A stretch of DNA of 64,000 nt from a virus (IMGVR_UViG_3300000553_000006:1-64000), one strand, 5' to 3'. Counted from the first letter of the stretch, positions 4,679 through 49,701 are shown. Translations and numbers: made by a program. Notes: generated from the sequence alone by a model not told the origin.

Positions 4679-4714
4679 ATCATTAAGTAATACTACCGCC
4701 GAACGGTATTAATG

Positions 4715-5086
4715 TCAAGTAATGTAGTTGTTCTCACGAGCACTTTTAATGTATGCGTGGATCTTCAGACTACCCACAGGGTTCATGCTGTGTACAACGT
4801 AGTCTGGGAATGGTAGATTGTTTTCATGACAAAGATCAACTAACCAAACAGCGCAATGATAGCCTGTTTTCTCTGGTCCATAATCATCAGAACCAGCAGA
4901 CATAGCTTGATAGTGTTGATCAGCAAGATCATGATCGAAACAAACGAATTCTGGCAGACCATTCATAACGATGAATTTAACAAACTCATCATACGATCTG
5001 ACGATTTCGTATGGACCAACAGGAAATGATACCCAGGTTACTTGTCCTGGGTATCGCTCATCATCTAGAAATAGTTTGTAAGTCAT
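4715..5086 (-). CDS. hypothetical protein
   Basis: 123-aa ORF. Confidence 0.45.
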   Translation of the reverse strand: MTYKLFLDDERYPGQVTWVSFPVGPYEIVRSYDEFVKFIVMNGLPEFVCFDHDLADQHYQAMSAGSDDYGPEKTGYHCAVWLVDLCHENNLPFPDYVVHSMNPVGSLKIHAYIKSARENNYIT

Positions 5087-6069: not shown

Positions 6070-6144
6070 TGGATGGGGGTTTGGGCTTCGAACCCATCTC
6101 TCCTGATTCAAAGTCAGGTATCCTACCAACTAGACGATCCCCCA
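6070..6144 (-). tRNA. tRNA-Gln (UUG)
   Basis: Manual fold of the minus strand: acceptor TGGGGGA/ACCCCCA, T-loop GGTTCGAAGCC, anticodon arm CCTGA-CTTTGAA-TCAGG, encoded CCA. Confidence 0.75.
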
Positions 6145-6145
6145 A

Positions 6146-6219
6146 TGGCGCTCATGACGGGACTCGAACCCGCCTTACCGGATCGACAGTCCGGTCCCTT
6201 CCCTGATGGGTACATGAGC
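6146..6219 (-). tRNA. tRNA-Asp (GUC)
   Basis: Manual fold: anticodon arm CCGGA-CTGTCGA-TCCGG, T-loop GGTTCGAGTCC, acceptor GCTCATG/CATGAGC, CCA; a minus-sense TATAAATA late box lies just upstream (6229..6236). Confidence 0.75.
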
Positions 6220-6331
6220 ATAGTAACTTATTTATACCACAAAAACAACTGCAATAGGGACCAGCGATCTTTTTCCGAGGTGCCATAGGGAATGTCGGAA
6301 AAGACTATTACTCCCATAAGGACGCTGGTTG

Positions 6332-6955
6332 CTAACTTCTCCCAAATCTCCAACCTTCAGGCAAAGATTCGGATTTATTAATCTTTTTACTACGAATTCC
6401 ATCTGTTATCCAAACTTTACCTAAATTTGGTGAACATTTTAGATTTTGAAATGGGTGAGTTCCAGTTTGGAATTGTAGTCTAGAAGAAATAGAAACTGAT
6501 CTACAAAAGTTTTCTCTGAATTTATGGTCCGTTTCTAATTTATATTTTCTTTTTGTGTTACCTAGAATAGAAGCAGCTTTGAAATCAACATTTTGTTTTT
6601 GTATCGGAACAGATAATCCATTAGTATTGATATAACCAAATCCACCTTTACCGCCAGGACAGATATTATACGTATCTTCTCGTAAACAAAACTCTTCTGT
6701 CACTAACTCTTTTTCTTTATTGTTCATTTCTTCTTCAGAGTCAAACACAAAAAGAATTTCTTTAGAGAACTTATCTAATCCATATTTCTTCTGGGATCGT
6801 TTAAGATTTTGACCAGAACCCATGTATCCATCAGTCAAAGACTTTGTTTGATGTTTACCAATATAGATCTTATTATTAATAGAACAAGTAATTTTATAGA
6901 CAGTATAAAACAAAGTACTACCCCTGGAATTATTGAAAGGTCTTAGTATGCCCAT
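6332..6955 (-). CDS. GIY-YIG homing endonuclease (seg-like), paralog of 46212..46826
   Basis: FYTVYKITCSINNKIYIGKHQT...DGYMGSG GIY-YIG core, and the C-terminal two thirds are near-identical to paralog 46212..46826 (KELVTEEF, NICPGGKGGFGYIN), giving a family-typical size of 207 aa with a putative DNA-binding tail. Confidence 0.8.
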   Translation of the reverse strand: MGILRPFNNSRGSTLFYTVYKITCSINNKIYIGKHQTKSLTDGYMGSGQNLKRSQKKYGLDKFSKEILFVFDSEEEMNNKEKELVTEEFCLREDTYNICPGGKGGFGYINTNGLSVPIQKQNVDFKAASILGNTKRKYKLETDHKFRENFCRSVSISSRLQFQTGTHPFQNLKCSPNLGKVWITDGIRSKKINKSESLPEGWRFGRS

Positions 6956-6965
6956 TTATAATTCC
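6926..6965 (-). promoter_or_regulatory. leader hairpin enclosing the start codon of the GIY-YIG gene
   Basis: Arms GGAATTAT/ATAATTCC flank a conserved loop AAATGGGCATACTAAGACCTTTC; a minus-sense TATAAATG late-like box overlaps. Confidence 0.55.
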
Positions 6966-7059
6966 AGAGGCTTGTGTCAGAGCAACTGGTAACGCTCCAG
7001 TATAGCCAGCTTCCAAAGCCAACTGAGATCCTTGTCTTTCCTACTCTGATAACTCAAAA

Positions 7060-7146
7060 TGGAGGGTCCTGTGGGATTCGAACCCACGGTGTGCTTGCGC
7101 ATGCAGATTAAGAGTCTGCTCGTTTCGACCGCTTACCTAAAAACCC
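7060..7146 (-). tRNA. type II (long variable arm) tRNA, anticodon reads CUU as folded
   Basis: 87 nt. Acceptor GGGUUUU/AGGACCC with two G.U pairs. Ser-like D-loop AAGCGGTCGAA. Anticodon arm GCAGA-CTCTTAA-TCTGC. 15-nt variable arm. T-arm GTGGG-TTCGAAT-CCCAC. Encoded CCA. The anticodon assignment is not standard for a type II tRNA. Confidence 0.55.
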
Positions 7147-7214
7147 ATAAGAGTGTTATTTAGTCACCCAACTGTTACATTATAGGTGAAGAGCGAATTA
7201 AAAGCAACTGATTT

Positions 7215-10719: not shown

Positions 10720-10769
10720 GCTCTTCCTTTCAACTTAGGAATTAAGTATACGCCCAACGCAGATTAATG

Positions 10770-11129
10770 TCAAGCGGCTAACTTAAAAATTCGATTCTTC
10801 TTAAGAGTAGTCTTACGATAGTAAACGATAGGAACCGTATGGATTTGATCCATCAGAGCCTTACGCTTGGTCGCGTAGTCAGGATCATTCCAGCGAATTC
10901 CATTAAGAAGATTCCAGAATTCTCCGTTTACATCTTCTCCAGAATCGTTGAATACCCACTTTGAAGTATTTTCTTCAACGCGAGCCTGAGCTCCCTTACC
11001 ATTCATACCAAGATAGACACCCTTGGCGGTATAAGTGTTACCCCAACCAGTAGTTACGATAATAACTTCATCACCAGGCTTAATCACTTGGCCAATTTTA
11101 TTGGTAAACTCGACAGCTTCAGTCATCAT
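10770..11129 (-). CDS. hypothetical protein
   Basis: 119-aa ORF; TTGACATTAAT promoter at about 10763 upstream of the neighbouring gene. Confidence 0.45.
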   Translation of the reverse strand: MMTEAVEFTNKIGQVIKPGDEVIIVTTGWGNTYTAKGVYLGMNGKGAQARVEENTSKWVFNDSGEDVNGEFWNLLNGIRWNDPDYATKRKALMDQIHTVPIVYYRKTTLKKNRIFKLAA

Positions 11130-12779: not shown

Positions 12780-12850
12780 TCTTCAACCGTGGTTGGGCTC
12801 GAACCAACGACCTTCCTCTGCCTGAGGACGCTCTATCCGACTGAGCTACA
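12780..12850 (-). other. tRNA-like element (atypical; possible pseudo-tRNA)
   Basis: Canonical D-arm GCTC-AGTCGGATA-GAGC and T-loop GGTTCGAGCC, but no standard 7-nt anticodon loop or acceptor pairing could be folded. Confidence 0.35.
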
Positions 12851-12946
12851 CAAATTTACACCATTACACTTTCGTCTCTGTTTTGTCTAGAATTAACAGA
12901 GACTACAAACCTCATATTGTCATTCTAACTCAGGCGACCATTATTG

Positions 12947-13180
12947 TCAAGCCTCAAGCGGAATAAAAGGTGTTCCCCAAGTTACTTCTTCTGTCGGAAT
13001 AAACAACAGATCGAATCCATCATCGTCTTCAGGATGTCTAATATCTTCAGCGAATCGATCACCGAATTTGTGTCTCCAGTAAACAAACTTCTCTGTTATC
13101 CCATTCCAGCGAGCAGTCTGGGCGTTTCTACAACTTCCCCAGTAATACTGTCCGTGAATTAGATCTTTCTTGGCGATCAC
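12947..13180 (-). CDS. hypothetical protein
   Basis: 77-aa ORF. Confidence 0.4.
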   Translation of the reverse strand: MIAKKDLIHGQYYWGSCRNAQTARWNGITEKFVYWRHKFGDRFAEDIRHPEDDDGFDLLFIPTEEVTWGTPFIPLEA

Positions 13181-14045: not shown

Positions 14046-14101
14046 TATATTTCCTTTATGTCAATTCACAGTAATCATTTTACGCTAGAAATGATTTAAT
14101 G

Positions 14102-14341
14102 TCAACCGATGTCACACACGCCAGGATGTTTAATCCGGAGCTTGATCGAGCCCAGGACTATGCGAAGCCACTGCCAGAAGCCACCATGCTCCAGAACCGT
14201 AGCCAGACCAGCTCCAGACATCACTCCAACCAGACTGACACGCGTGGAGAGATCTTCGCTGTCAAACTCCCAAGCCATCTCTTCCACGTGATTCATTGCC
14301 GTGTTGAGCACGTTGCGAGCACGAGCTTCCATGTCAGCCAT
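14102..14341 (-). CDS. hypothetical protein (GC-rich island)
   Basis: 79 aa; local GC clearly above the window average. Confidence 0.4.
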   Translation of the reverse strand: MADMEARARNVLNTAMNHVEEMAWEFDSEDLSTRVSLVGVMSGAGLATVLEHGGFWQWLRIVLGSIKLRIKHPGVCDIG

Positions 14342-14547
14342 CAGTTCGCCTCCAGAGCCAGAATGTCCATCGCGATGCTGTGTCCGATCTTGTGATTGGT
14401 GTCAGCGAACTTGTCCCACCAGGTGTCGCGCGCACGAGTCTGGCTCACATAATCGTACTTGTAGACCACACGGTCGGGGAGGCAGAAAGCCATACCGCAG
14501 ACGGACATCTCGATCGGGTCAACCATGGTGCGTTCCTTCATTTCCAT
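14341..14547 (-). CDS. hypothetical protein (GC-rich island)
   Basis: 68 aa; TTGCCATTAAT promoter at about 14565. Confidence 0.4.
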   Translation of the reverse strand: MEMKERTMVDPIEMSVCGMAFCLPDRVVYKYDYVSQTRARDTWWDKFADTNHKIGHSIAMDILALEAN

Positions 14548-14585
14548 GATACAAATGTACCCTGGATCCCCATTAATGGCAAGGA

Positions 14586-14867
14586 CTATTTTTGTGTCTC
14601 AGCATGAGCAGCCGGATCGCTATCCCACACACCCTCGCCGTACCCAGCTTCCCATGCGCGTCGAGCAGCAGACTCGTAGATCATGGGATCGACGTTGGAG
14701 TAGGCGAACGAAGGCTTAAACTCTTCTTCGAACCACTCTTCGAAGGTCATGTTATCGCTCCTGTATCCAACAAGACCATCCACAGGTCTCAGAGAGAGTG
14801 AACGCATACTTCTCGGCAGAGCGCCAATCCTCAAAGGTAGCGACGCATTCATCAATCGCATCACCAA
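14586..14867 (-). CDS. hypothetical protein (GC-rich island)
   Basis: 93-aa ORF; the real start may be the internal MTFEEWFEE. Confidence 0.35.
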   Translation of the reverse strand: MVMRLMNASLPLRIGALPRSMRSLSLRPVDGLVGYRSDNMTFEEWFEEEFKPSFAYSNVDPMIYESAARRAWEAGYGEGVWDSDPAAHAETQK

Positions 14868-14920
14868 TCCGATCAGGATACCAAGTTCTCATTACACGAA
14901 AGGTCATCGGTTTCATTTCC

Positions 14921-15268
14921 TCAGCCGAAATAGGTAGGAGCGATCATCAGAGACAGAGCCGAAGAAGCCGAGCAGCCACCGAAGTTAATTACAAGAGCGG
15001 GAAGACCGCAGAAGGTACCAGCTTCAACCGAGCCGTAACCACAGTCACAGTCATCACCCCAAGAGACCAACTCACGACCGGGGACGAACTCATAGAGCAT
15101 ATCCTCAGCAGCGTCATAGTCATCAGCCGCTTCAGGATCAAGGATCGAGAACGGACCGTTCACCGTTTCAAAGAACGCACCGACCAGCGAAGGGACTTCA
15201 GTCGGGAAGGACTCAGCAGCGTCAACGGTCAGAGTTTCAACCAGGTCTTCCAGCGAGAGAGCGTTCAT
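14921..15268 (-). CDS. acidic hypothetical protein
   Basis: Start MNALSLEDL at 15268 with an AAGGAAA RBS; strongly acidic (possible DNA mimic). Confidence 0.45.
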   Translation of the reverse strand: MNALSLEDLVETLTVDAAESFPTEVPSLVGAFFETVNGPFSILDPEAADDYDAAEDMLYEFVPGRELVSWGDDCDCGYGSVEAGTFCGLPALVINFGGCSASSALSLMIAPTYFG

Positions 15269-15293
15269 AGGGATTTCCTTTTCCAACTCTCTC

Positions 15294-15322
15294 ATTATCG
15301 CCCGGAATTGAATTAATAGCAA
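15294..15322 (-). promoter_or_regulatory. sigma70-like promoter, TTGCTATTAAT class
   Basis: Minus sense: -35 TTGCTA, 17-bp spacer, -10 GATAAT, followed by AGTTGG and an AAGGAAA RBS; one member of a repeated cassette. Confidence 0.55.
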
Positions 15323-15483
15323 GCGATAAAATGTGATGGCTCCCGACTGGGTTCAAAGCCGCAGCGGGAGCCATCCTGGGTCGTGGGTCTGCCCCACTCG
15401 TCCCTCGCAGGAGTATTGTCGGTCGCGGGATTATCAGCAATTACCCCACCGACAGTTGAGAATAATACTCAACCAAACTTCGA

Positions 15484-16005
15484 TTAGGCGAAGGTGAGTT
15501 CTTCAACTTCATCCACTTCCGGGATGTTATCTTCAGAGACAGCAGCCAGTTCAGCAGCTTCCTGCTTCGCCTTAGCAGCCGCAGCACGAGCGCGAGCACG
15601 CTCAAGAGCAGCCATCGCGTTGCCAGCTTGAACAACCTTCTGACCAGCGATTTCTTCCGGAGTCTTCTTGGGCTTCGCAGCCTTGACCTTCTTTTCAGCC
15701 TTCACCTTGGCAGGCTTGTTCGGATCAGCCTTGCGACCGCGAGTAACGCTGGGACCCTTGACGATCTCGGTCAGATTGGTCAGACCTTGCGTGACGCAGT
15801 AGCGGTAGTACGAAGTAGCGTTGCCGACGGTGATGCCGAGCTCATCAGCGATCAGAGCAGAGATCTCGGTTTGGTTCAGCAACGGATTGGCGTTGATCAG
15901 AGCGATAGCAGTAGCGCGCTTGTCGCCACGCTTAAAGGTCTTAGCAGCTTCAGCAGCGGCGGCAGTTTCAGCGACGGTGGTTTCGGTAGCTTCAGTCATA
16001 TTCAA
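15484..16005 (-). CDS. DNA-binding protein with HTH and Lys/Ala-rich histone-H1-like tail
   Basis: NQTEISALIADELGITVGNATSYY HTH-like segment, then KPAKVKAEKKVKAAKPKK repeats; own promoter TTGCCATTAAT-17-TAGAAT at about 16068..16099. Confidence 0.5.
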   Translation of the reverse strand: MNMTEATETTVAETAAAAEAAKTFKRGDKRATAIALINANPLLNQTEISALIADELGITVGNATSYYRYCVTQGLTNLTEIVKGPSVTRGRKADPNKPAKVKAEKKVKAAKPKKTPEEIAGQKVVQAGNAMAALERARARAAAAKAKQEAAELAAVSEDNIPEVDEVEELTFA

Positions 16006-16117
16006 GTCCTCATTTTATATCAGCGGGGAGGAATTCCCCAGGGTCACAAGGGAGTTCCTCACCCCCAACTATCACATTCTAGCTCCGGTCCCCATTAATG
16101 GCAACCAGTTTTTTCGT

Positions 16118-16303
16118 TCAGGCCGACTTTTTTTCGAAGCGGGCAGAAGCCCGAGCGGACAGACCCGGACGCTTGTTGCGCAGCTGTTTGCTGCCCAGGA
16201 CCAATCGAACGCCACAGTCCGTAGCCCCATTGAGCTTCATATAGCGGTCGATCATGTCCTGGTCGTTGGCGGTGTTCGCGCGGGGAGCAAAGCGGAGGTT
16301 CAT
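16118..16303 (-). CDS. small basic protein
   Basis: 61 aa; own promoter at 16328..16356 and an AAGGAAAGGAACACCGAATG RBS. Confidence 0.4.
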   Translation of the reverse strand: MNLRFAPRANTANDQDMIDRYMKLNGATDCGVRLVLGSKQLRNKRPGLSARASARFEKKSA

Positions 16304-16372
16304 TCGGTGTTCCTTTCCTTATGATTCATTATCGCCTATGAGCGAATTAAACGCAAGCGATATTTTTCACAT

Positions 16373-16476
16373 ACACGCGTAGGCGATTGTGACGATCAAC
16401 CCCAGGACAGCCATCACCACGATGAACTCGCACGCGATTTTGACGCCCAGCAGTCCGTTCCAGATCCAGTCGCTCA
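16373..16476 (-). CDS. predicted small hydrophobic peptide (MSDWIWNGLLGVKIACEFIVVMAVLGLIVTIAYACM)
   Basis: Not in the ORF track (<60 aa); translated by hand; own promoter TTGCTATTAAT-17-GATAAT at 16503..16531. Confidence 0.3.
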
Positions 16477-16639
16477 TTTCCGTTTCCTTCAGCCTATGAT
16501 TCATTATCGCTCAGACCTGAATTAATAGCAAGCGCCATTTTCATATCGTTAAACGATAAAGAATCCAGCGCATAAATATAATGTGAGTCGCGAGCCACCA
16601 CAACTCCACTCACTCTAGTCCAACCAAGGAGAGACCAGC

Positions 16640-17020
16640 ATGAGTACTTATGACACCAAGAAGTTCGTCAACAAGCGTAAAAAGACTACTAAGTCTAATC
16701 ATCGATCAATTTACGCTAAAAACTACGGACCAATCCCAAAAGATGAAAAGGGCTTCTCTTATGATATTCATCATATAGACGGAAACCATTTGAACAATAA
16801 TCCAAACAATCTTCAAGCATTGTCAATGCAAGAACACCATGATATACACATTGCTCAAGGAGATTATGGAGCAGCATCTCTAATACGAAAGCGAATGTCA
16901 GCTACTATGAGAACATCTACCTGTCGTTGGTGTGGTCATGAAGATTTAGAAATGAACATTCAATATAAACACAATCTCCATTGTTCACTGGTTAATGATA
17001 TATTCGATATGTTTAATTAA
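16640..17020 (+). CDS. HNH homing endonuclease
   Basis: YDIHHIDGNHLNNNPNNLQALSMQEHHDIH HNH motif; conserved HE leader upstream. Confidence 0.75.
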   Translation: MSTYDTKKFVNKRKKTTKSNHRSIYAKNYGPIPKDEKGFSYDIHHIDGNHLNNNPNNLQALSMQEHHDIHIAQGDYGAASLIRKRMSATMRTSTCRWCGHEDLEMNIQYKHNLHCSLVNDIFDMFN

Positions 17021-17214
17021 CCAAGCTTATCCATCACTTCAATGCGTCTATTCAAGTACTCTCGAACGTTGGGCATAGTATCATACAAGGTTACTAACAG
17101 TCCCTTCATGTACCCCAGCTGGGACCCAGCAAGGTAAGCAGGATTAGTGTTAGTTGATTGCTTTACAACTTGCTCACCAAGCTTCTTCAATACTACTTCA
17201 CCAGCGTCAACCAT
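17017..17214 (-). CDS. hypothetical protein
   Basis: 65-aa ORF. Confidence 0.35.
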   Translation of the reverse strand: MVDAGEVVLKKLGEQVVKQSTNTNPAYLAGSQLGYMKGLLVTLYDTMPNVREYLNRRIEVMDKLG

Positions 17215-17482: not shown

Positions 17483-17859
17483 TTTATATCGTTTTCCCCG
17501 GGAGAAACAGACAATTATTGAAACAACTAAACCAGGAGATTAGTCACGGACTAGGACAGGGTATTTCTCAATATTACCGCCGAACAACTCAGCCGTTGAC
17601 TTAATATCAACGAACGAATCATCGTATTCATCATAGATTTTGATGTCTAGATCGAGTTGTTGTCCGTCAAGTGACGACAAATACTCAGCCAATTCGCGGT
17701 AAGTCATCGCAGCGGTCCCTTTCCTTTATTGTCACTCATTGTACCGCGTCAGCGAATTAATAGCAATATCGTTTTCCGATAAGGAGCGACACATAAGCAC
17801 AAACTTATCGGACGTAAAAAAATCGGTGCGATTCGTTTTCGTATAGGTTGAGTAAAGGG

Positions 17860-19818: not shown

Positions 19819-20157
19819 CTAGACGTAAGCAATACGGTTGCCATAAGCACGCAGCTTACCGGCATCGGGCAGGCAATGAGAGTACTTACCGTTGATATAC
19901 ACATAGACACCATCGCGATGCTTGCTGGTGACTTCATAGATAGCCAGCTTTGCGTGGCGAGCGTTCTTCTTCAGAGTAGAAGCCGGACGCGTAGCGTAAC
20001 GCCAAGACTCACGACCAGCAGGCTTCGGGCGCGGACCAATATAGAAAGTACGGAGATAGTATTCCTTACCCGTAGACTTGGTCAGCTCGGCGAGTTGCTT
20101 GCGCGTTTCAGCGCGAACTTCGTTGAGCTTGTCGAGCGGGATGATCGTGTAAGACAT
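19819..20157 (-). CDS. hypothetical basic protein
   Basis: ATG at 20157 (MSYTIIPLDKL) with a GGAAAAGGAAA RBS; tandem promoters at 20183..20211 and 20263..20291. Confidence 0.5.
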   Translation of the reverse strand: MSYTIIPLDKLNEVRAETRKQLAELTKSTGKEYYLRTFYIGPRPKPAGRESWRYATRPASTLKKNARHAKLAIYEVTSKHRDGVYVYINGKYSHCLPDAGKLRAYGNRIAYV

Positions 20158-20182: not shown

Positions 20183-20211
20183 ATTCTAGCTCGGGGACGG
20201 ATTAATAGCAA
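20183..20211 (-). promoter_or_regulatory. sigma70-like promoter, TTGCTATTAAT-17-TAGAAT
   Basis: Read directly from the sequence; a second near-identical copy (TTGCTTTTAAT-17-TAGAAT) lies 80 bp upstream at 20263..20291. Confidence 0.55.
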
Positions 20212-20366
20212 GCGGTGTTTTTTATGTCCCGGCGTTCGCTACCATCCGTCCCCGACTATCACATTCTAACCGGAGAGCGGATTAAAAGCAAGCAATTTTA
20301 TATAAATAGAATGCTAGTCGCGAGTTGGCGCTCCACTAGCTCTATTCTGGTTGAGGAGAACAGCAC

Positions 20367-21002
20367 ATGAGTATTTATTACGTTTACGCATACCTTCGCA
20401 AATCGAACGGTATCCCTTACTATATCGGAAAAGGTAAAGGAGACAGAGCGTTTAGAAAACATACTTTCGTATCAGTTCCAAAAGACAAATCTAAAATAGT
20501 GTTCTTAGAAACTAATCTTACGGAGATTGGCGCTCTAGCATTAGAGAGACGATACATCCGTTGGTATGGTCGTAAAAACTTGAATACAGGAGTCCTTCTA
20601 AACAAAACAGATGGAGGAGAAGGAACAGCAGGAAGAATTCCTACACCACAATCTCCTGAATCAAATATAGCAAGAGGATCTGGATTCAGAGGTAAGAAAA
20701 GACCAGAACATGCTGCTAAAATGAAAGAGTATTATCGTTCAGGTAAACTGAATCAACTAGCAGTAGCTAGAAAACATACTGAAAAAACTAAAGATAAGCT
20801 ACGTAAACCTAAATCTAACAAACTAAACTATCAGAACAGGAAATGGTATCACAGTTTGCTCCTAAAGAAAGAAGCTTGCGTGAGTACCATTCCTGACTGG
20901 ACAGATGTTAAACTAGGTAGATACCCTAATTCCGGAGACAGGTTACGCGAGCCATCTTTTCCCAACGTTCAGGCGAAGTCTTACGAAGAGCAGCCAGCTT
21001 AA
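20367..21002 (+). CDS. GIY-YIG homing endonuclease
   Basis: [29 protein letters not shown]; paralog of 30000..30596 and 49150..49701; conserved leader. Confidence 0.8.
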
Positions 21003-21786: not shown

Positions 21787-21818
21787 CTATGTCATTCTAG
21801 CCGATGACGGGATTAATG

Positions 21819-22334
21819 TCAAACGCTTTTTGTCGCTTGTCGCTTAATAAATTCGCCGACCTTACCAATGTGTTTGCATTGGCGCCGGAAAGCAAATCCC
21901 TGACAATCGCAAGTATACTTGCCATCAATTCTCTGCACGAGATAGTTGTCGCCTTTGGAACCTTTGACGCGCCAAAGCTTATTATCGTTGTTTACATGAG
22001 TGTTCGCACCAGCACTTCCAGTGTGGTACTCAACATCTATCACTCTACTTGATTCGATCACAGACTCAAACGGACGAAAGCCAGGACCGAAAGGTTGCAT
22101 CGTTAGAATACGCCAAGTCCCAGGATTGTCGTGCTTAGCTGACTTAACCTTTACTCCGGTCGTCTTAAACTTATTCCGGACGTTAATAGCAGCGATGCCT
22201 GGTTTCCAAACATCGGACCAATCGGTCGTAATCGTTACACGAGATCCATCTGTCGGCTCGTTAAACATCACATCCCCTCTCAAATTAGAACTAATTCTAG
22301 CCTGAGAGGGGATTAATGTCAAGCCTTTTTCCAT
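21819..22334 (-). CDS. SWIM zinc-finger protein
   Basis: C-terminal YTCDCQGFAFRRQCKH (CxC-x9-CxH); own TTGACATTAAT promoter at about 22300..22318. Confidence 0.5.
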   Translation of the reverse strand: MEKGLTLIPSQARISSNLRGDVMFNEPTDGSRVTITTDWSDVWKPGIAAINVRNKFKTTGVKVKSAKHDNPGTWRILTMQPFGPGFRPFESVIESSRVIDVEYHTGSAGANTHVNNDNKLWRVKGSKGDNYLVQRIDGKYTCDCQGFAFRRQCKHIGKVGEFIKRQATKSV

Positions 22335-25322: not shown

Positions 25323-25703
25323 TTAAACAGCAGTCAGTTCGATATGAACATCTTTTCCATAGAGTACAGGATCGTACCCGTCGACAATAAACCCAGGCGA
25401 ACAACCGCAACCGCAGCCAGCCTTCTGGCTCCAGCGATAGTTTACATTCTCCAGAGTAACACCAGCGTTGCTCAATCCTTCACGGAGAGCTTGCCGATAG
25501 ACATTAATAGGACGAGAGCGCCTGTTCTCCAGGTTCTCGATAATAGATTCGCCCTTCGGCCAGATATAAACGCGAGACTTAGTCCGATACCGAGCGCGCG
25601 GCTCTTGACGAATCGGAACAAACTTCGTTTCGGTTTGCATTTTGGAGTTCCCTTCAACCATGTTCATAATATACGGTGGAACGCCATTAATAGCAAGCCC
25701 CAA
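25323..25703 (-). CDS. hypothetical protein
   Basis: 126-aa ORF; promoter motif at about 25686. Confidence 0.45.
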   Translation of the reverse strand: MGLAINGVPPYIMNMVEGNSKMQTETKFVPIRQEPRARYRTKSRVYIWPKGESIIENLENRRSRPINVYRQALREGLSNAGVTLENVNYRWSQKAGCGCGCSPGFIVDGYDPVLYGKDVHIELTAV

Positions 25704-28815: not shown

Positions 28816-29448
28816 ATGTCAAGCCCAAATGCATATGTGTATAAAATAACGAATACGGTAACTAATGAATTTTATATCGGATACAGATACAAAAACCAAA
28901 GACAAAACGTTCTTCCAGAAAATGATTTGTTTGTTACATATTTCTCTTCATCAAAACGAGTTCTATCTGACATAGAGAAATATGGGAAGTCAAATTTTAT
29001 TTATGAGATAATTTTCCAAGACCAAAATTCTCTATTGTGTTGGGAAAAAGAACAGGAAACAATCAAAGAACTCTGGGGAAATTCTCTTTTACTTAACTCG
29101 AAATATAATGATGTCTCTAGTAAAACAGAACATTACCGAAGAGTTGGTATTGTATCAGAAGAAGCAAGAAAGAAAATGAGTGTTGCAGGAAGAGGGAAAA
29201 CAAAGTCTCTCGAGCATAGAAGAAAAATTGCCGAATCTAATAGAGGTAGAGTAAAATCTCTAGAAGAGAGACAAAAGATATCTAACTCAAGAATTGGGAA
29301 ACCAACAAATAAAGGTAAGTCTCCTCCAAAATTTTCCTGTCCTCACTGCAACAAAGTAGCATCTTGGGCAAATTTACAAAAGTGGCATAATGACAAATGT
29401 AAATTTTATGTCGTTACCTCTTCAATTTCCGAGAAACCTTCCTCGTAA
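28816..29448 (+). CDS. GIY-YIG homing endonuclease with NUMOD3 repeats
   Basis: YVYKITNTVTNEFYIGYRYKN; SLEHRRKIAESNRGRVKSLEERQKIS repeats. Confidence 0.75.
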   Translation: MSSPNAYVYKITNTVTNEFYIGYRYKNQRQNVLPENDLFVTYFSSSKRVLSDIEKYGKSNFIYEIIFQDQNSLLCWEKEQETIKELWGNSLLLNSKYNDVSSKTEHYRRVGIVSEEARKKMSVAGRGKTKSLEHRRKIAESNRGRVKSLEERQKISNSRIGKPTNKGKSPPKFSCPHCNKVASWANLQKWHNDKCKFYVVTSSISEKPSS

Positions 29449-29999: not shown

Positions 30000-30596
30000 A
30001 TGACTATTTATTACGTCTATGCATATTTGAGAAACTCAGACAACTCACCATATTACATCGGTAAAGGTACAGGAAATCGTGCATATAAAAGACACGGAAG
30101 AATCAGTGTACCTAATGATAAAACAAAAATTAAAATTCTAGAAACTAATCTAACAGAGATTGGCGCTCTAGCATTAGAGAGACGATACATCCGTTGGTAT
30201 GGTCGTAAAGATTTAGAAACAGGAATATTACTTAATTTGACAGACGGAGGTGAAGGATTACAAGGACTCAAAAGAACTCCAACTCACAAAGCAAATATCT
30301 CGAAGTCTTTGACAGGTAAACCTAAAAAGAAACACACTCAAGAATGGAAGGGTCATATGTCTTCAGTAATGAAGGGAAAAATTCCTTGGAATAAAGGGAT
30401 ACCGCTGTCAAAAGAACACTTAGAGTTAAGAACAAAAGCAGTCAAAGGTATGAGATGGTGGACGAACGGTGAAACAGAAAAGAAATCCTTTGTTCAACCC
30501 GACTCTTCATTCCACATTGGAAGATTAGAAAAGTTTCGCCCACCATCTCAATTAAAGCGTATTCCTTCAAACCAGGTAGAAGCCAGAACTTCATAG
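30000..30596 (+). CDS. GIY-YIG homing endonuclease
   Basis: [29 protein letters not shown]; paralog of 20367 and 49150. Confidence 0.8.
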
Positions 30597-36971: not shown

Positions 36972-37439
36972 ATGATTATATATGATCCTATCGCAACCTT
37001 TCTTGGTGTAACACCATGTTACGTAGATTACGATAATCTACCAATAACTCCATCTAATCATACTCACAATCCTCTTTGGTTACGTCCGGGTGGATGGAAA
37101 CATGATGATGAAGCGAAGAAAAAGATGAGTAAAGCTAAGAAAGGTAAACCAGGACCAAAGAAATCTAAAGAAACAAAGCAAAAAATGGGTGAATCACATA
37201 GAGGTATACCAAGACCAGATGTTAGTCTTCTCCATAAAGGTAAAATCTTATCTGATGAGACAAAAGAAAAGATTAGAATAGCGAGAGCTAAACAAATTTC
37301 ACAACCACATAATGAAGAAACTAAGTTAAAAATATCTTTAGCAAAGACAGGCAAAAAGCGCAAACCTTTTACCGAAGAGCACAAAAGAAAGATGAGTGAG
37401 TCAGCTAGAATTCGCCGACTGAAGTCATCAAATTCTTAA
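36972..37439 (+). CDS. NUMOD3-repeat DNA-binding protein (homing-endonuclease-derived; no clear catalytic domain)
   Basis: Repeated KxKxSxAxxGK blocks; shares the conserved HE leader. Confidence 0.55.
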   Translation: MIIYDPIATFLGVTPCYVDYDNLPITPSNHTHNPLWLRPGGWKHDDEAKKKMSKAKKGKPGPKKSKETKQKMGESHRGIPRPDVSLLHKGKILSDETKEKIRIARAKQISQPHNEETKLKISLAKTGKKRKPFTEEHKRKMSESARIRRLKSSNS

Positions 37440-39706: not shown

Positions 39707-39734
39707 CTATGAACCATTATACCCTGAAGGCGCA

Positions 39735-40334
39735 TTAATGGCAAGCGTGTTTTTCCGCTAGATATTGTGACACGAGATGCATAATCGCTTGATGCATGTC
39801 CTCAACAATACCATAGTTGTGAGCGTCAACGTGAATTGAAATATCAGCCATCATTTTGGCGACACCACCGTTGAATCCAGTTAAAGCTACTGATTTGATT
39901 CCAATTTCTTCAGCACACTCTAATGCTCGGAGAATGTTAGCCGAATTTCCGCTGGAACTAATAACGATAAGAAGGTCTTCAGCGCTGTATGACAGTTTTC
40001 GTAGATAATACGCGATAGATTGATTATAACCGATATCGTTGCTAATCGCAGTCAGCATAGAAACATTGGAAACCAGCGAGATTACTCGTGGTTTTAGATC
40101 GCTCTCGTGGCCGACACCCTTACACACATCACAAACAAGATGGTCAGCGATAGCTGCTGAGCCACCATTACCAGCGACAAAGATGTTTCCGCCTGATTTA
40201 GTTGTATTCTCGATAGCATCTGCAAACGCTTGAATCTTATCCATTTGACTGTCTAGATCTTTAAGTGAAGCGATCAGTCCATACTTGTAGCTAGAGAACT
40301 TCGTAAAAATGTCCATTTTGTTCCTCTGAATCAT
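39735..40334 (-). CDS. gmhA: SIS-domain sedoheptulose-7-phosphate isomerase (GmhA-like)
   Basis: FVAGNGGSAAIADHLVCD matches the GmhA GNGGSAADAQH motif; 199 aa. Confidence 0.7.
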   Translation of the reverse strand: MIQRNKMDIFTKFSSYKYGLIASLKDLDSQMDKIQAFADAIENTTKSGGNIFVAGNGGSAAIADHLVCDVCKGVGHESDLKPRVISLVSNVSMLTAISNDIGYNQSIAYYLRKLSYSAEDLLIVISSSGNSANILRALECAEEIGIKSVALTGFNGGVAKMMADISIHVDAHNYGIVEDMHQAIMHLVSQYLAEKHACH

Positions 40335-44142: not shown

Positions 44143-44216
44143 TGGCATGGGTACTAAGAGTCGAACTCAGGCTTACAGTTTTGGAGACTGTCGTGCTACC
44201 GTAACACTTTACCCAC
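44143..44216 (-). tRNA. tRNA-Trp (CCA)
   Basis: Anticodon arm ACAGT-CTCCAAA-ACTGT, T-loop GAGTTCGACTC, encoded CCA. Confidence 0.7.
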
Positions 44217-44526
44217 ACATGTATTTCTTATTTTTACCAGCGTATGTCTCAGTTTGAGAATGGCAGTTAGGACAAAGAAAGGTTAAATTATCTAATCTAT
44301 TGTCGTTATTTACACCATTCTTGTGTTCTAACTGAAGAGAAATAGATTTCCCATTCCACTCATCAGAAAGTCCGCAATCTGAACAAACATAATCTATCAG
44401 TTTTTGCTTAATTACTCTTTCTTTTAACCTATGTCTAGGATAATTTGAATTTTCAACAAAAACAGTATCATTAGAAAATTTTCTACTAGCTGCAGATAAT
44501 AGCAACCCTTGTATATTTCTTGGCAT
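44209..44526 (-). CDS. HNH endonuclease
   Basis: CSDCGLSDEW...HKNGVNNDNRLDNLTFLCPNCH; minus-sense TATAAATA late box at about 44550. Confidence 0.7.
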   Translation of the reverse strand: MPRNIQGLLLSAASRKFSNDTVFVENSNYPRHRLKERVIKQKLIDYVCSDCGLSDEWNGKSISLQLEHKNGVNNDNRLDNLTFLCPNCHSQTETYAGKNKKYMCG

Positions 44527-44583
44527 AAGCTATCTCCTCTTTAGAGATATTTATATACCGTCGGTTCTAAGAACCGAAGAAAA

Positions 44584-44658
44584 TGGTGGAGGATAAGGGA
44601 ATCGAACCCTTGCTTCATGCTTGCAAAGCACGAGTGCTACCATTATCACCAATCCCCC
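44584..44658 (-). tRNA. tRNA-Ala (UGC)
   Basis: Anticodon arm CGTGC-TTTGCAA-GCATG; G3.U70 identity pair present; CCA. Confidence 0.7.
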
Positions 44659-44664
44659 ATTATA

Positions 44665-44740
44665 TGGTGCCGCAACGAGGAATCGAACCCCGGACATCCT
44701 GCTTACAAGGCAGGCGCTCTTCCAACTGAGCTATTACGGC
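44665..44740 (-). tRNA. tRNA-Thr (UGU)
   Basis: Anticodon arm CCTGC-CTTGTAA-GCAGG; D-arm GCTCAGTTGGAAGAGC; CCA. Confidence 0.75.
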
Positions 44741-44787
44741 ATAATTACTCTTTATTTATAAATATCTAAGCAGCTAAGGAGAAGAAT

Positions 44788-45147
44788 ATGATTGAACATA
44801 TCGAAAAAATCAACACAAAGATCGCACTTACGGTAACAGATGTCGTAGGTACAATGTGGTGCGCGTATATTTTCGCAGTTCTAGCAGTACTCAGTCTTCC
44901 TACAGCTATTGCTGGTGGTATCGCAACTCTAATTTCTTGGGTCGCTCAAACTTTCCTTCAACTCGTACTTCTATCAGTCATCATGGTTGGACAACGTATT
45001 CAAAGCGAGAGAACTGAGAAGCGAGACGAAGAAGATCACGTAACCATCATGAACGAATTCGCAGAAATTAAACAAATGCATAACGAAATAAAAGAAATCT
45101 TGGCTCTTGAAAAGCAAGATGCTGCTCAAGAGAAGCGTGGAGTCTAG
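44788..45147 (+). CDS. membrane protein
   Basis: 119 aa, two TM helices; TATAAATA late box at 44757..44764 and an AAGGAGA RBS. Confidence 0.55.
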   Translation: MIEHIEKINTKIALTVTDVVGTMWCAYIFAVLAVLSLPTAIAGGIATLISWVAQTFLQLVLLSVIMVGQRIQSERTEKRDEEDHVTIMNEFAEIKQMHNEIKEILALEKQDAAQEKRGV

Positions 45148-45154
45148 AGAGTAT

Positions 45155-45230
45155 TGGAGTGCACGACAGGATTCGAACCTGCATTAAACTGAGTTGCAAT
45201 CAGTTGACTAACCATTCATACCACGTGCAC
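45155..45230 (-). tRNA. tRNA-Cys (GCA)
   Basis: Anticodon arm ACTGA-TTGCAAC-TCAGT; acceptor GTGCACG/CGTGCAC; CCA. Confidence 0.7.
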
Positions 45231-45810
45231 GTAATTTTCTATATCTTAATCCTTTACTCCATCCCGTCATATTTAGGAATTCTTCTTCAGTTACCATTTT
45301 AGATTTCTGCAAATCATCATTAGAAACCCAAAATTTACCTTTACTGTGATGATGTTCTAACAGTTTTTTAGAAAGTGCTGGACCATTTTTCCTATTAATT
45401 TCAGTCATCTTTTCACAAAACTTGTCACGATATGACTGATCAATTTTGATTCTATTCCCGTGAATTAAATGTTGATCAACTTTATGATTTAATCCAAATT
45501 TATTCACATAATAGAAATTTGCAGGTCCACCCAATTTTACATTATACACATCATTTCTATCTAAAAATTCTTCCGTTACTAATTCTATTTCTCTATCATA
45601 CATATTTTCTTCAGTATCAAACCACTCTATAATTTCTTTAGAAAAATTCTCAATTCCATACTTTTTTATAGCAGATTTAATACCTTTTCCAGATCCCATA
45701 TATCCATCATCTATATTAGAAGTTTTATGGACCCCAACATATATTTTGCCGTTCAGTCTATTTCTAATTTGATATAGATAGTAATACATAAGAATCTCCA
45801 TTCTCTTCAT
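45208..45810 (-). CDS. GIY-YIG homing endonuclease
   Basis: YYYLYQIRNRLNGKIYVGVHKT...DGYMGSG; its stop overlaps the 5' end of tRNA-Cys; late box at about 45822. Confidence 0.75.
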   Translation of the reverse strand: MKRMEILMYYYLYQIRNRLNGKIYVGVHKTSNIDDGYMGSGKGIKSAIKKYGIENFSKEIIEWFDTEENMYDREIELVTEEFLDRNDVYNVKLGGPANFYYVNKFGLNHKVDQHLIHGNRIKIDQSYRDKFCEKMTEINRKNGPALSKKLLEHHHSKGKFWVSNDDLQKSKMVTEEEFLNMTGWSKGLRYRKLRARGMNG

Positions 45811-45848
45811 TACTATTTATATAAACGCAGACCGTTACCTAGAAGATA

Positions 45849-45923
45849 TGGCACCCACATCCAGAATCGAACTGGAATCGACCGTTTAGAAGACGGTAGC
45901 TCTGTCCGTTGAGCTATGCGGGC
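45849..45923 (-). tRNA. tRNA-Arg (UCU)
   Basis: Anticodon arm ACCGT-CTTCTAA-ACGGT; CCA. Confidence 0.7.
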
Positions 45924-45929
45924 TCAAAA

Positions 45930-46004
45930 TGGTACTGGAGCCCAGAATTGAACTGGAGACTCAGGGGACACAATCCTGCATTTTACCAATTAAACTACTC
46001 CAGC
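45930..46004 (-). tRNA. tRNA-His (GUG), probable
   Basis: Anticodon loop TTGTGTC in a CAGGA/CCCTG stem with one mismatch; CCA. Confidence 0.55.
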
Positions 46005-46202
46005 TCACTCTTGATCAATAACCAGATAGCAAAATCTATGAACAATATCGAAAGACTCGATTACCTTAATCGCGCGCTCATCGTTTGCTTTTGCTTTCAC
46101 ATGTAGATCAAGAATATAATCTCGTAGACGAAAAAAATTGTAAGCATCTTGGAGAAGATCACCAAGATCCAGAACTTGTTCAACAGTCACATTCTGTTTC
46201 AT
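46005..46202 (-). CDS. hypothetical protein
   Basis: 65-aa ORF. Confidence 0.35.
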   Translation of the reverse strand: MKQNVTVEQVLDLGDLLQDAYNFFRLRDYILDLHVKAKANDERAIKVIESFDIVHRFCYLVIDQE

Positions 46203-46211
46203 AATATATCC

Positions 46212-46826
46212 TTAAAGAGTCTTTCGACCTTTATTATAACCTAGTGCCAAATAATAATCAAGCTGTTCTTTTTTAATTTTAAGAATACGTTGTCCATTAT
46301 TTATCCAACAAGTACCAAATTGAGAATTTTTAGATCCTTTTTGGTGTTCTTTTTCGTGCAAAGTATTTTTTCTTTTTAATTTGGCATCTTCAGTATTGGC
46401 AAATAATGAAGCAATCTTTATATTATTCTTTCTAGCTCTTAGTTTATTTTCACTTTCAATTTTAAGATTTAATTTATTCAATTTTCCTGAAATTTTTCCA
46501 CCCAATCTATATGCTTCAATAGGAACCAATCCATTTGCATTGATATACCCAAATCCACCTTTACCACCAGGACATAGATTATAGGTATCCTCTCGTGTAC
46601 AAAACTCTTCGGTAACCAATTCTTTCTCTTTAGCATTCATTTCTTCTTCCGAATCAAATACAAAGAGAATTTCTTTAGTAAACTTATCTAATCCATATTT
46701 CTTTTGGGCTCTACGTAATGATTGACCAGAACCCATATATCCATCATCCAAATCTTTTGTTTGATGTTTACCAATATAGATTTTGTTGTTTACAGAACAA
46801 GTAATTTTGTAGATAGTATAAAACAT
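46212..46826 (-). CDS. GIY-YIG homing endonuclease, paralog of 6332..6955
   Basis: MFYTIYKITCSVNNKIYIGKHQTKDLDDGYMGSG. Confidence 0.8.
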   Translation of the reverse strand: MFYTIYKITCSVNNKIYIGKHQTKDLDDGYMGSGQSLRRAQKKYGLDKFTKEILFVFDSEEEMNAKEKELVTEEFCTREDTYNLCPGGKGGFGYINANGLVPIEAYRLGGKISGKLNKLNLKIESENKLRARKNNIKIASLFANTEDAKLKRKNTLHEKEHQKGSKNSQFGTCWINNGQRILKIKKEQLDYYLALGYNKGRKTL

Positions 46827-46833
46827 ATTAGTG

Positions 46834-46883
46834 TCCCAGGAAATATAGAAAGGTCTTAGTATGCCTATTTATATTTCCTGGGA
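46834..46883 (-). promoter_or_regulatory. leader hairpin (14-bp perfect stem) upstream of the GIY-YIG gene
   Basis: Arms TCCCAGGAAATATA/TATATTTCCTGGGA around the same conserved loop as at 6926..6965; contains a minus-sense TATAAATA. Confidence 0.55.
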
Positions 46884-46889
46884 CTGAAG

Positions 46890-46979
46890 TAGTCCTGCTA
46901 GGACTCGAACCTAGATCGTTCACCCGTCCGGTGATCATGCCTTATAAGGACACCGCTCTGCCAATTGAGCTACAAGACT
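46890..46979 (-). tRNA. type II tRNA with 22-nt variable arm, anticodon reads UAU as folded; no encoded CCA
   Basis: Acceptor AGTCTTG/CAGGACT, D-arm GCTC-AATTGGCA-GAGC, anticodon arm GTGTC-CTTATAA-GGCAT (2 G.U), T-arm CTAGG-TTCGAGT-CCTAG. Confidence 0.5.
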
Positions 46980-46987
46980 ACATAATT

Positions 46988-47072
46988 TGGTGCGAATGAG
47001 AGGACTCGAACCTCCACCCCTTTCGGGACTGGTTTCTAAGACCAGCGCGTCTACCAATTCCGCCACACTCGC
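46988..47072 (-). tRNA. tRNA-Leu (UAG)
   Basis: Anticodon arm CTGGT-CTTAGAA-ACCAG, long variable arm, CCA; 85 nt. Confidence 0.75.
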
Positions 47073-47186
47073 ATTATTTTCCGTCTAGTAAAAGACAAAG
47101 AAAGCCTACTATCCAAACCCAAAGTGGCGCATTATAGTGCCAACATACCAGAAAGCCAAAAATAGCAAGCATTTCTCATCCTCAAA

Positions 47187-47262
47187 TGGTGCCGACGGCA
47201 GGGATCGCACCCGCATCTGCTGGGTTTCAACCAGCCGCTAAGACTACATCAGCTACGACGGC
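47187..47262 (-). tRNA. tRNA-Phe (GAA)
   Basis: Anticodon arm GCTGG-TTGAAAC-CCAGC; CCA. Confidence 0.65.
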
Positions 47263-47269
47263 GTAATAT

Positions 47270-47346
47270 TGGAAGGGGATACGGGACTCGAACCCGCATT
47301 AGTGGATTGAAAGTCCACTGTCCTAGTCCAATTAGACGAATCCCCC
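47270..47346 (-). tRNA. tRNA-Glu (UUC)
   Basis: Anticodon arm GTGGA-CTTTCAA-TCCAC; T-loop GGTTCGAGTCC; CCA. Confidence 0.7.
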
Positions 47347-48821: not shown

Positions 48822-49149
48822 GATATTTAGTTTTCCCTAGTAAAGTTCAGCGAGAATGCTGTCTGCCCAATCAAACCAATCGAGCTCTTCACGCTCGACC
48901 TTTTCGTTGTTACGGATCTTCCGCATAATCTCGCAGTACTTAGCCTGCATGGCTAAGAACCCTTGTTCGATCATCGGAAACTTAAAGACTTTGATATCCA
49001 TCTCAATCCCTCCTACAACGGTTACATACTTAGTATACCGTCAGGATGAATTAATAGCAAGTCCCAAAATTATTTTTTTGATATAAATAGAATGCTAGTC
49101 GCGGACTGCCATCCCACTAGCTCTAGTCCTCGTTCAAAGAGCCCAGCAC

Positions 49150-49701
49150 ATGTTTATTTATTACGTCTATGCTTACCTTCGTAAATCTGATGGATCTCCA
49201 TATTACATCGGAAAAGGTAAAGGAAAGAGAGCGTTTGACAAAAGTCATTCTGTCTCTGTACCTAAAGACAAATCAAAAATAATTTTCCTCGAAACACATC
49301 TATCTAATCTGGGTGCATGCGCATTAGAACGTAGATATATTCGCTGGTATGGACGTAAAGATTTAGGAACAGGTATCCTTCTTAATAAGACAGAAGGAGG
49401 GGATGGAAATTCTGGAAAAAGATCTAAATTGTGGAGAGAAAACCACAGTAAAATAATGTCCGGAGAAAACAACCCTTCTAAGAGACCTGAAGTAAAAGAA
49501 AAACAAAGAATGACTGATAAATCTTATATGCAGAAAGATGACTACAAGAACAAAATCTCCCAAGCAAATAAGAAAGCAATCATTACTCCAAACGGTAAAT
49601 TCAAATCAGTTGGAGAAGCTATCTCTAGTTACAATACGACTCCACACTACTTTTACAAGATGATGAAATCTAGCCCGAAGGAGTTTTATACTGTGCTTTA
49701 A
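49150..49701 (+). CDS. GIY-YIG homing endonuclease
   Basis: [29 protein letters not shown]; conserved leader at 49083..49149. Confidence 0.8.

Follow-up and report, generated by a model that had tools for sequence, protein, structure and literature searches.

Genomic setting and genes of the island

This study concerns a stretch of viral DNA of 64,000 nucleotides (nt) (IMGVR_UViG_3300000553_000006:1-64000; the whole stretch is called the window) and, within it, a G+C (GC)-rich island at 14100..16531 that carries eight small, putatively early genes on the minus strand together with a series of repeated promoter cassettes. The window derives from an uncultured freshwater member of the T4 superfamily of phages. 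This assignment follows from its gene content (a gp61-type primase, NrdA, NrdB, gp63-like RnlA, and an ATP-dependent DNA ligase) and from the T4-type late-promoter motif TATAAATA, which occurred 13 times in the window compared to 2.7 expected. RnlB, SegE-like GIY-YIG and HNH endonucleases, and 14 tRNAs also were encoded. The best matches of the primase, at 48% identity, were T4-superfamily phages (the Sinorhizobium phiM12 group and T4-like cyanophages), and the gene order nrdA-nrdB...rnlA...ligase presumably follows the T4 map. Ten metagenome contigs from separate samples or assemblies (L001-L010) matched the window, with 100% identity in nine cases and 99.98% in one; these matches, along with the same layout in a sibling phage described below, ruled out an assembly chimera. 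A megablast search with the 13-18 kb region returned no match among GenBank phages and no near-identical record.

The island is part of a ~20-kb hyperplastic region between the genes for RNA ligase A (gp63-like) and DNA ligase (gp30-like), and it lies upstream of the latter. Relatives anchored on the ligase (56-59% identical) share the core genes but have none of the ~20 kb between 32.9 and 12.6 kb, which places the island in a region of this type; every island gene is absent from these distant relatives. An IMG/VR search with two flanking proteins (136 and 196 amino acids, aa) found no relatives; homologues of the 136-aa protein exist in non-syntenic contexts and are uninformative on the presence or absence of the island. 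Origin from host DNA or from an integrated element was considered and rejected: alignment-based searches of 185,579 bacterial and archaeal species genomes (GTDB) recovered no cellular homologue for the two island proteins used as queries (171 and 115 aa), and there was no integrase among the island and near-flank proteins scanned against Pfam and PHROGs.

All eight open reading frames (ORFs) read from the minus strand, and each has an AAGGAA-type ribosome-binding site. The first, at the upper edge, encodes a 36-aa hydrophobic peptide with a single predicted membrane helix (16367..16477). It is followed by genes for a 61-aa basic protein with an isoelectric point (pI) of 10.9 (16118..16303), a 171-aa protein (15484..15999), a 115-aa acidic protein of pI 4.1 with 20 Asp/Glu compared to one Lys/Arg (14921..15268), a 54-aa protein (14752..14916), a 54-aa acidic protein of pI 4.2 (14586..14750), a second 61-aa protein (14341..14526), and a 79-aa protein that is the last of the island (14102..14341). 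A first-pass annotation of the window had counted at least seven genes, one fewer than the eight found; its two acidic proteins, its 61-aa basic protein, and the Lys/Ala-rich middle of the 171-aa protein were all recovered, and its 35-aa hydrophobic peptide proved to have 36 residues.

Every one of the eight ORFs was retained in the sibling at 72-94% amino-acid identity (72% for the 36-aa peptide, 93% for the basic 61-aa protein, 86% for the 115-aa protein with its homologue P0059, 94% for the 54-aa protein encoded at 14752..14916, 89% for the second 61-aa protein, and 85% for the 79-aa protein). Synonymous codon differences equaled or exceeded non-synonymous ones in every pair (for example, 11 and 10 in the 36-aa peptide gene and 11 and 3 in the gene at 14752..14916), a sign of purifying selection that identifies them as real genes. 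Searches of Pfam and PHROGs assigned none of the eight proteins to a family; the basic 61-aa protein had no match in either, and the acidic 54-aa protein showed a weak match to PHROG 16912 (E = 0.002). The same two collections yielded no meaningful family for the 24-member family of the 171-aa protein, and a sequence search of the PDB with the island proteins returned nothing.

The AlphaFold2 model of the 171-aa protein comprises an N-terminal three-helix domain resembling a helix-turn-helix (HTH), a disordered linker rich in Lys, Ala, and Pro, a long helix, and an acidic tail. The predicted local distance difference test (pLDDT) score exceeded 95 for residues 21-80; the helices span residues 26-37, 43-54, 58-70, and 125-156, so that the confident bundle covers residues 26-70. 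The top Foldseek matches were all HTH domains (Lrp, MarR, DeoR, and homeodomain), none of them significant (E > 0.8). On the basis of the model, this is probably a DNA-binding protein. Of the earlier description of it as an HTH joined to a histone-H1-like, Lys/Ala-rich segment, the Lys/Ala richness was borne out; the HTH corresponds to a modeled bundle with non-significant structural matches. For the 115-aa protein the model was of low confidence (pLDDT 61.7), and the best Foldseek match (E = 0.12, template modeling score below 0.3) was not meaningful. The idea that this protein and the acidic 54-aa protein act as DNA mimics has their acidity (pI 4.1 and 4.2) as its sole support, with no family match for either, and T4 Arn as a query had no match in the window at E < 1. 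The role that we infer for the island proteins, all eight of which are without a family match, is most likely early modulation of the host.

Predicted promoter cassettes of the island and the window

Five cassettes lie within the island and a sixth at its lower edge, all on the minus strand. The unit consists of an A-tract, a -35 hexamer of the form TTG(C/A)(T/C)A, a 17-bp spacer that opens with TTAAT, a -10 hexamer reading TAgAAT or GATAAT, a start region that in many cases is AGTTGG, and the AAGGAA ribosome-binding site. Cassette 1 (16503..16531; TTGCTA-17-GATAAT) marks the upper edge of the island and precedes the 36-aa gene. It is followed by cassette 2 (16328..16356; TTGCGT-17-GATAAT), cassette 3 (16076..16104; TTGCCA-17-TAGAAT, then AGTTGG), cassette 4 (15294..15322; TTGCTA-17-GATAAT), and cassette 5 (14554..14582; TTGCCA-17-TACATT). 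The boundary cassette (14077..14105; TTGACA-17-TAAAAT) and the 79-aa gene overlap, the stop codon sharing bases with the -35 hexamer. Outside the island, cassettes were located at 17738-17766 (minus strand), 20183-20211, 20263-20291, 21794-21822, 22294-22322, 25668-25696, 39716-39744, and 49032-49060. Each of the 13 copies in the first-pass annotation was found, along with five more; the additional copies outside the island are at 4690-4718, 7179-7207, 10745-10773, and 12922-12950. Most cassettes lie between 4.7 and 25.7 kb, and promoters of the cassette type precede tRNA genes at 7207, 12950, and 47392.

Across the cassettes the -10 hexamers read TAGAAT, TATAAT, GATAAT, and TACAAT. Most copies have an A-run that lies 6-12 nt upstream of the -35 hexamer and a distance of 22-31 nt between the -10 hexamer and the start codon; the ribosome-binding site (AAGGAA) lies ~25 nt downstream. 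A stricter form of the pattern (TTGMNATTAAT-N13-ANNNT) gave 14 matches in the window compared to 0.04 expected; 13 lie on the minus (coding) strand. A repeat finder recovered the cassettes independently, as 49-60-nt repeat families (D4 and D7) that extend to the ATG. Two details of the unit as first drawn required revision: its 17-bp spacer is correct when measured from TTGCTA to the -10 hexamer, with TTAAT as the first five bases of the spacer, leaving only 12 bp between TTGCTATTAAT and the -10 hexamer, and the AGTTGG that follows the promoter is exact in only 5 of 16 copies. An exact scan of IMG/VR for TTGCTATTAAT-N12-KAKAAT gave, among the matches listed, a single match per contig.

The -35 and -10 hexamers, the 17-bp spacing, and the interchange of TTGCTA with TTGACA, the perfect hexamer, in six or more members of the family conform to sigma-70 promoter geometry, and the unit is a predicted strong, canonical early promoter of the host sigma-70 type. 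Each small gene or gene pair thus would form its own early transcription unit. The first-pass annotation had instead likened the TTGCTA box to the MotA box of T4, such that the units would be middle promoters of the MotA/AsiA type and the island a middle-expressed block. The MotA box, (a/t)3TGCTTtA, is centered at -30 and lies 12±1 bp from the -10 hexamer, where it replaces the -35 element (PMC2988021). The cassettes share with such promoters a good -10 hexamer and an upstream box containing TGCT, and two copies (7207 and 20291) read TTGCTT; moreover, an activator gene could lie outside the 64 kb of the genome that are visible. Taken for a MotA box, however, the box would end 15 bp from the -10 hexamer rather than 12±1, whereas the TTGCTA hexamer stands at the canonical -35 distance of 17 bp; the core reads TGCTA or TGACA, a genuine -35 element is present, and TTGACA variants occur. 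Neither MotA nor AsiA had a homologue among the ORFs of the window when the T4 proteins were used in blastp and phmmer searches, and a weak AsiA match was a WYL_2 protein. By primase, the nearest cultured relatives are the phiM12 group and the cyanophages, and these phages are not known to encode MotA. We consider the assignment to middle promoters very improbable.

A mini-palindrome, TATCG-N5-CGATA, was observed just upstream of the -35 hexamer at 16544-16558 and 17767-17781 (two occurrences compared to 0.02 expected) and also in the sibling (contig L290, 2561-2575). Its half-site TATCGC abuts the -35 hexamer at 15322 and 16356.

Comparison with a sibling phage

The sibling was found by way of its 86%-identical homologue of the 115-aa protein, and it was seen as contigs L290-L292 and a 13.96-kb contig. 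The 13.96-kb contig was compared from its gene list, and the DNA comparison was made on 4.7 kb of this one close relative. L290 aligned with window positions 17766-14100 at 80-85% nucleotide identity (~83% overall), low-GC flank and island alike. The same rise in GC was present in L290, where the island (82-83% nucleotide identity) and the low-GC flanks had diverged to the same extent. The sole close relative, represented by L290 and the 13.96-kb contig, thus has the island at the same site and with the same high GC. Because the sibling carries the island at ~83% identity, the import of its genes would predate the split between the two phages, which now differ by ~17% in nucleotide sequence, and the acquisition was not very recent. 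Of the recent horizontal acquisition originally proposed, the foreign composition and codon usage were borne out and the recency was weakened.

Three informative differences between the two phages fell at cassettes. In the sibling, 818 bp of additional GC-rich sequence carry three genes (for 77, 72, and 46 aa; GC content at third codon positions, GC3, of 0.62) and two further cassettes, and at the site of this indel the window has a single cassette, cassette 4 (15294-15322). The upstream part of cassette 4, comprising a terminator hairpin and TTTTATCG, matched cassette 1 of the sibling, and its downstream part (GCGATAATGAGA.GTTGG) matched cassette 3 of the sibling, with the core TTGCTATTAATT shared; relative to the sibling, cassette 4 is chimeric. 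A second difference was located at window position 14100, where homology with the sibling ends in the -35/TTAA core (TTGACATTAA) of the boundary cassette (14077-14105) and the GC falls to 0.25-0.41. Below this point the window continues with AT-rich sequence, then genes for 136-, 152-, and 77-aa proteins and the ligase; the sibling has thirteen other genes, then the 152-aa gene and the ligase. In cassette 1, the -10 hexamer and the downstream half were swapped, reading GATAATgaatcat in the window and TAGAATgtgatag in the sibling. As dispersed direct repeats that are short and identical over a 12-13-nt core, the cassettes could provide crossover points for homologous recombination, such that ORFs between them would be inserted, deleted, or swapped.

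A different origin of the island would be its delivery by an adjacent homing endonuclease through co-conversion, with the cassettes acting as promoters only. A free-standing HNH gene (16640..17020, plus strand; PF13392, E = 1.6e-11) adjoins the upper edge from outside the island and on the opposite strand, the phage has many free-standing endonucleases, and in the sibling an unrelated ORF takes the place of the gene (17017-17214) that borders the HNH gene on its other side. The authors who described the promoter-early stem-loop (PeSL), a class of mobile regulatory cassettes in T4-type phages (PMC2839356, Arbiol et al. 2010; PMC4122927, Comeau et al. 2014), note endonuclease-driven transfer of adjacent DNA (PMC4122927). 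The HNH gene has a GC of ~0.37, however, unlike the island, and the two differences mapped inside the island and at its lower edge lie 1.3 and 2.5 kb from it, each exactly in a cassette core. Both siblings possess the HNH gene (76% amino-acid identity) as well as the island, and no homing event is visible. We judge this origin quite unlikely, but the endonuclease may have contributed to local turnover because the gene on its other side was replaced.

The replaced gene (17017-17214, minus strand) encodes 65 aa and is bordered by the 17277 promoter on one side and by the HNH gene's 3' end on the other. Its counterpart in the sibling (L290, 614-811) is an ORF of the same length with 28% identity over a partial alignment. 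A hairpin in the HNH leader (16575-16615) shows 100% identity between the two siblings, and the gene is preceded by a late-promoter-like CATAAATATAAT.

Composition, codon usage, and related genes in GC-rich phages

The GC content was 0.536 in 14100-16500 compared to 0.415 in the rest of the window. Windows of 300 nt ranged from 0.52 to 0.557 between ~14100 and 16500 and from 0.36 to 0.47 in the flanks, and the island was the top 2400-nt window by GC, the next non-overlapping best being 0.481. The GC island perceived by eye in the first-pass annotation at ~14.1-16.5 kb is thus confirmed by a computed, non-uniform profile with sharp edges. Codon usage also was foreign: the pooled GC3 of the island genes was 0.61 compared to 0.373±0.093 for 70 reference genes, and A-ending codons (CTA, TTA, TCA, CCA, GCA, and AGA, among others) were nearly absent. 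GC at the first and second codon positions (GC1 and GC2) also was shifted, and the encoded proteins were richer in Ala (13.8% vs 6.6%) and lower in Lys, Asn, Ile, and Tyr.

The 171-aa protein provided a link to other phages. Its family is small (3 clusters among 5.8 billion proteins and 23 representatives among 1.84 billion), and all homologues with readable DNA were on phage-like contigs of 0.50-0.565 GC. A tblastn search with the protein gave no match among GenBank phages, and an alignment-based locus search for the family in IMG/VR returned nothing. On three contigs (L011, L293, and L294), the homologues or their neighbor genes stood behind cassettes of the form TT(T/G)NNN-T(T/A)AATTC-N10-TA(T/G)A(A/C)T with hairpins nearby, the related cassettes on GC-rich contigs being TTTACAttaattc-N10-TATACT, TTGACTtaaattc-N10-TAGAAT, and TTTCTTttaattc-N10-TATAAT. 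The relative synonymous codon usage of the island correlated at 0.61-0.80 with that of the GC-rich contigs carrying 171-aa homologues compared to 0.25 with the core genes of the window. Together, the match in codon usage and the homologues behind related cassettes suggest that the island ORFs were most probably imported from GC-richer (~50-56%) related phages with the same promoter architecture, in which a -35 element is followed by TTAATTC.

High GC also could reflect selection, if immediate-early genes were tuned to the tRNAs of a GC-richer host before phage tRNAs accumulate. The tRNA genes of the window (6070-7146, 12784-12855, and 44143-47346, minus strand) include many that read A-ending codons (CAA, GCA, ACA, AGA, ATA, CTA, and GAA). 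Core genes use CTA, AGA, GCA, ACA, and CAA frequently, and the island genes use them much less; for GAA and ATA the difference is only slight. The GC excess is concentrated in coding sequence, a pattern that fits ORF exchange between shared cassettes and also codon selection, and other promoter-proximal genes show a GC3 of ~0.46-0.61 compared to the genome mean of 0.37. Synonymous selection does not, however, explain the shifts in GC1, GC2, and amino-acid content, and GC is ordinary in the genes that follow identical cassettes immediately outside the island (17766, 17277, and 14105). Furthermore, the contigs with homologues of the 171-aa gene are GC-rich along their whole length, and the drop in GC at 14100 coincides with the break in synteny. 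Selection for translation by host tRNAs is unlikely as the source of the island's composition, although it may contribute, and import from a GC-richer lineage is the reading that we prefer.

Three further features were seen in these sequences. A second GC-rich patch consists of a single gene (19819-20157, minus strand; 112 aa, GC 0.53, GC3 0.58) behind two tandem cassettes 80 bp apart (20183-20211 and 20263-20291), and this gene may be another imported ORF. Contig L011, which carries a 171-aa homologue, also encodes a repeat protein rich in Gly, Tyr, Asp, and Asn (837-1118; GYGNGNG... repeats). Two tRNAs of the window are unusually long (tRNA-Lys, 87 nt; tRNA-Ile, 91 nt).

Relation to PeSL cassettes and other known systems

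The cassettes have much in common with PeSLs. Both are repeated units of ~50-60 nt in which a sigma-70-like promoter (-35/N17/-10) is preceded by an A/T-rich tract and followed by a Shine-Dalgarno sequence and an ATG, and both stand before small orphan ORFs (ORFans) in hyperplastic clusters, with five to six units in 2.4 kb here and eight in ~5 kb in phage RB49. The TTGCTA-N17-TAGAAT form fits the nt-1/KVP40 PeSL consensus, TTGYVH-N17-TAWWAT (PMC4122927). ORFs that lie between two cassettes in one phage correspond to a single chimeric cassette in a close relative: an ORFan is found between two PeSLs in RB49, with a single chimeric PeSL in its place in phi1 (PMC2839356), just as the indel at cassette 4 ends in cassettes and leaves a chimera. 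There also are differences. The most conserved part of the cassettes here is the -35 hexamer plus the invariant TTAAT(TC) that opens the spacer, and the crossover would lie in this -35/TTAAT core, whereas crossovers in RB49 fall in the AT-rich tract or between the -10 hexamer and the ATG. The ORFs here are ~12 GC points off their host phage, a gap suggestive of exchange among T4-like lineages that differ in composition. Mini-circles have been shown experimentally in the RB49/phi1 PeSL system (PMC2839356; PMC4122927).

Two other comparisons are instructive. T4 early promoters (Hinton 2010, PMC2988021) resemble the cassettes in their host sigma-70 -35 and -10 elements 17 bp apart, in the A-tract upstream, and in additional conserved positions outside the hexamers, and they are likewise dense before small early genes of unassigned function and tRNA genes. 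The -35 hexamer here is TTGCTA or TTGACA, however, whereas the consensus of the PST/T4 PeSLs has TTTACW (PMC4122927), and no TGn extended -10 element was flagged at any cassette. Like morons and other compositional islands, the island comprises small genes that are autonomously transcribed (here by prediction) and whose composition is unlike that of their surroundings. It differs in that its promoters belong to a resident, phage-wide family instead of being foreign signals, in that most of its genes lack flanking terminators, and in that it forms an array of several cassettes rather than a single insertion.

Several observations weigh against equating this locus with a PeSL system that has shuffled imported genes. 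Among the 22 promoters examined, the upstream stem-loop that belongs to the definition of PeSLs took a strong form at a single island cassette (15322) and a modest one at 17766, 21822, 20291, 49060, and 16531; the other cassettes were without it, the promoter following directly after the preceding stop codon. A homologue in the donor-like lineage was found for only one of the eight island genes. DNA was available from one close relative (4.7 kb) and the directions of the indels were inferred; none among the relatives compared lacked only the island. Within the island, only the coding sequences were clearly GC-rich; its cassettes and leaders had a GC of 0.38-0.51, like cassettes elsewhere. The first genes behind cassettes outside the island had a somewhat raised GC3 of 0.35-0.61, so early-gene codon selection could contribute.

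With these points taken into account, we consider it likely that PeSL-like early-promoter cassettes organize and shuffle imported orphan early genes in the hyperplastic region of this T4-superfamily phage, by the crossover mechanism described for PeSL cassettes. The island is a clean further case of the known promoter-cassette gene shuffling in T4-type phages and no new kind of system. Shuffling of the PeSL type has so far been found mainly in cultured coliphages, Yersinia phages, and vibriophages, and the present case adds an uncultured lineage from freshwater within the T4 superfamily. The 12-point contrast in GC serves as a natural label, which suggests that the ORFs moved and that the promoter cassettes stayed or were homogenized. 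The island thereby offers a model locus for the spread of orphan early genes between phage lineages, and its eight conserved and selected proteins, putatively early, are candidates for screens of host-takeover or counter-defense functions.

Predicted structured RNA elements

Two noncoding segments of the island, both on the minus strand, are predicted to be structured. The 76-nt leader of the 171-aa gene contains a hairpin (16019..16069; -25.4 kcal/mol, z = -2.7), and the homologues of this gene on L293 and L294 likewise have hairpin leaders. The spacer downstream of the same gene (15323..15483) contains four hairpins (fold z = -4.3). Its last hairpin (15335-15375) is terminator-like, with an 11-bp stem (z = -5.7), and lies directly upstream of cassette 4. 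Two hairpins stand directly after the 171-aa stop codon (15421-15486), in a 66-nt segment that is 100% identical in the sibling compared to ~82% in its surroundings. The downstream spacer (164 nt) also contains a degenerate promoter-like sequence, TTGCTG-17-AATACT. A search of Rfam with 13.5-18.5 kb gave no match.

The -35 plus TTAAT(TC) core is common to freshwater T4-like phages of 42% GC (the window) and of 50-56% GC (L011, L293, and L294). This core could be an integron-like exchange site by which orphan early genes cross lineages and hosts already expression-ready. The 171-aa family, with its HTH, H1-like Lys/Ala/Pro linker, and acidic tail, would then be a new and widely exchanged early factor that targets the nucleoid or transcription, and the 66-nt double hairpin would be a functional RNA or recombination element. 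We regard this combination of proposals as rather doubtful.

Other endonuclease-like genes

The TATAAATA sites of the window include 20301, 29933, and 49082 on the plus strand and 6229, 34261, 44548, 45814, 46866, 55764, 57779, and 62424 on the minus strand. The plus-strand endonuclease genes are preceded by this motif. Three paralogous plus-strand ORFs (20367-21002, 30000-30596, and 49150-49701) share 70-72% nucleotide identity over 282 nt, and each has TATAAATA before it; a conserved hairpin leader is located at 20310, 36912, and 49091. The ORF at 30000-30596 showed a sub-threshold NUMOD3 match, and that at 28816-29448 (plus strand) has a SegE GIY-YIG domain along with a threshold-level NUMOD3 match. 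A further plus-strand ORF (36972-37439) grouped with these endonuclease-like ORFs. By sequence, the five plus-strand ORFs that start at 20367, 30000, 49150, 28816, and 36972 look like late-expressed homing endonucleases. On the minus strand, a SegE-like GIY-YIG gene (6332-6955) shares repeat segments with the ORFs at 45208-45810 and 46212-46826, at 61-86% nucleotide identity, and the latter two ORFs sit in the tRNA region.

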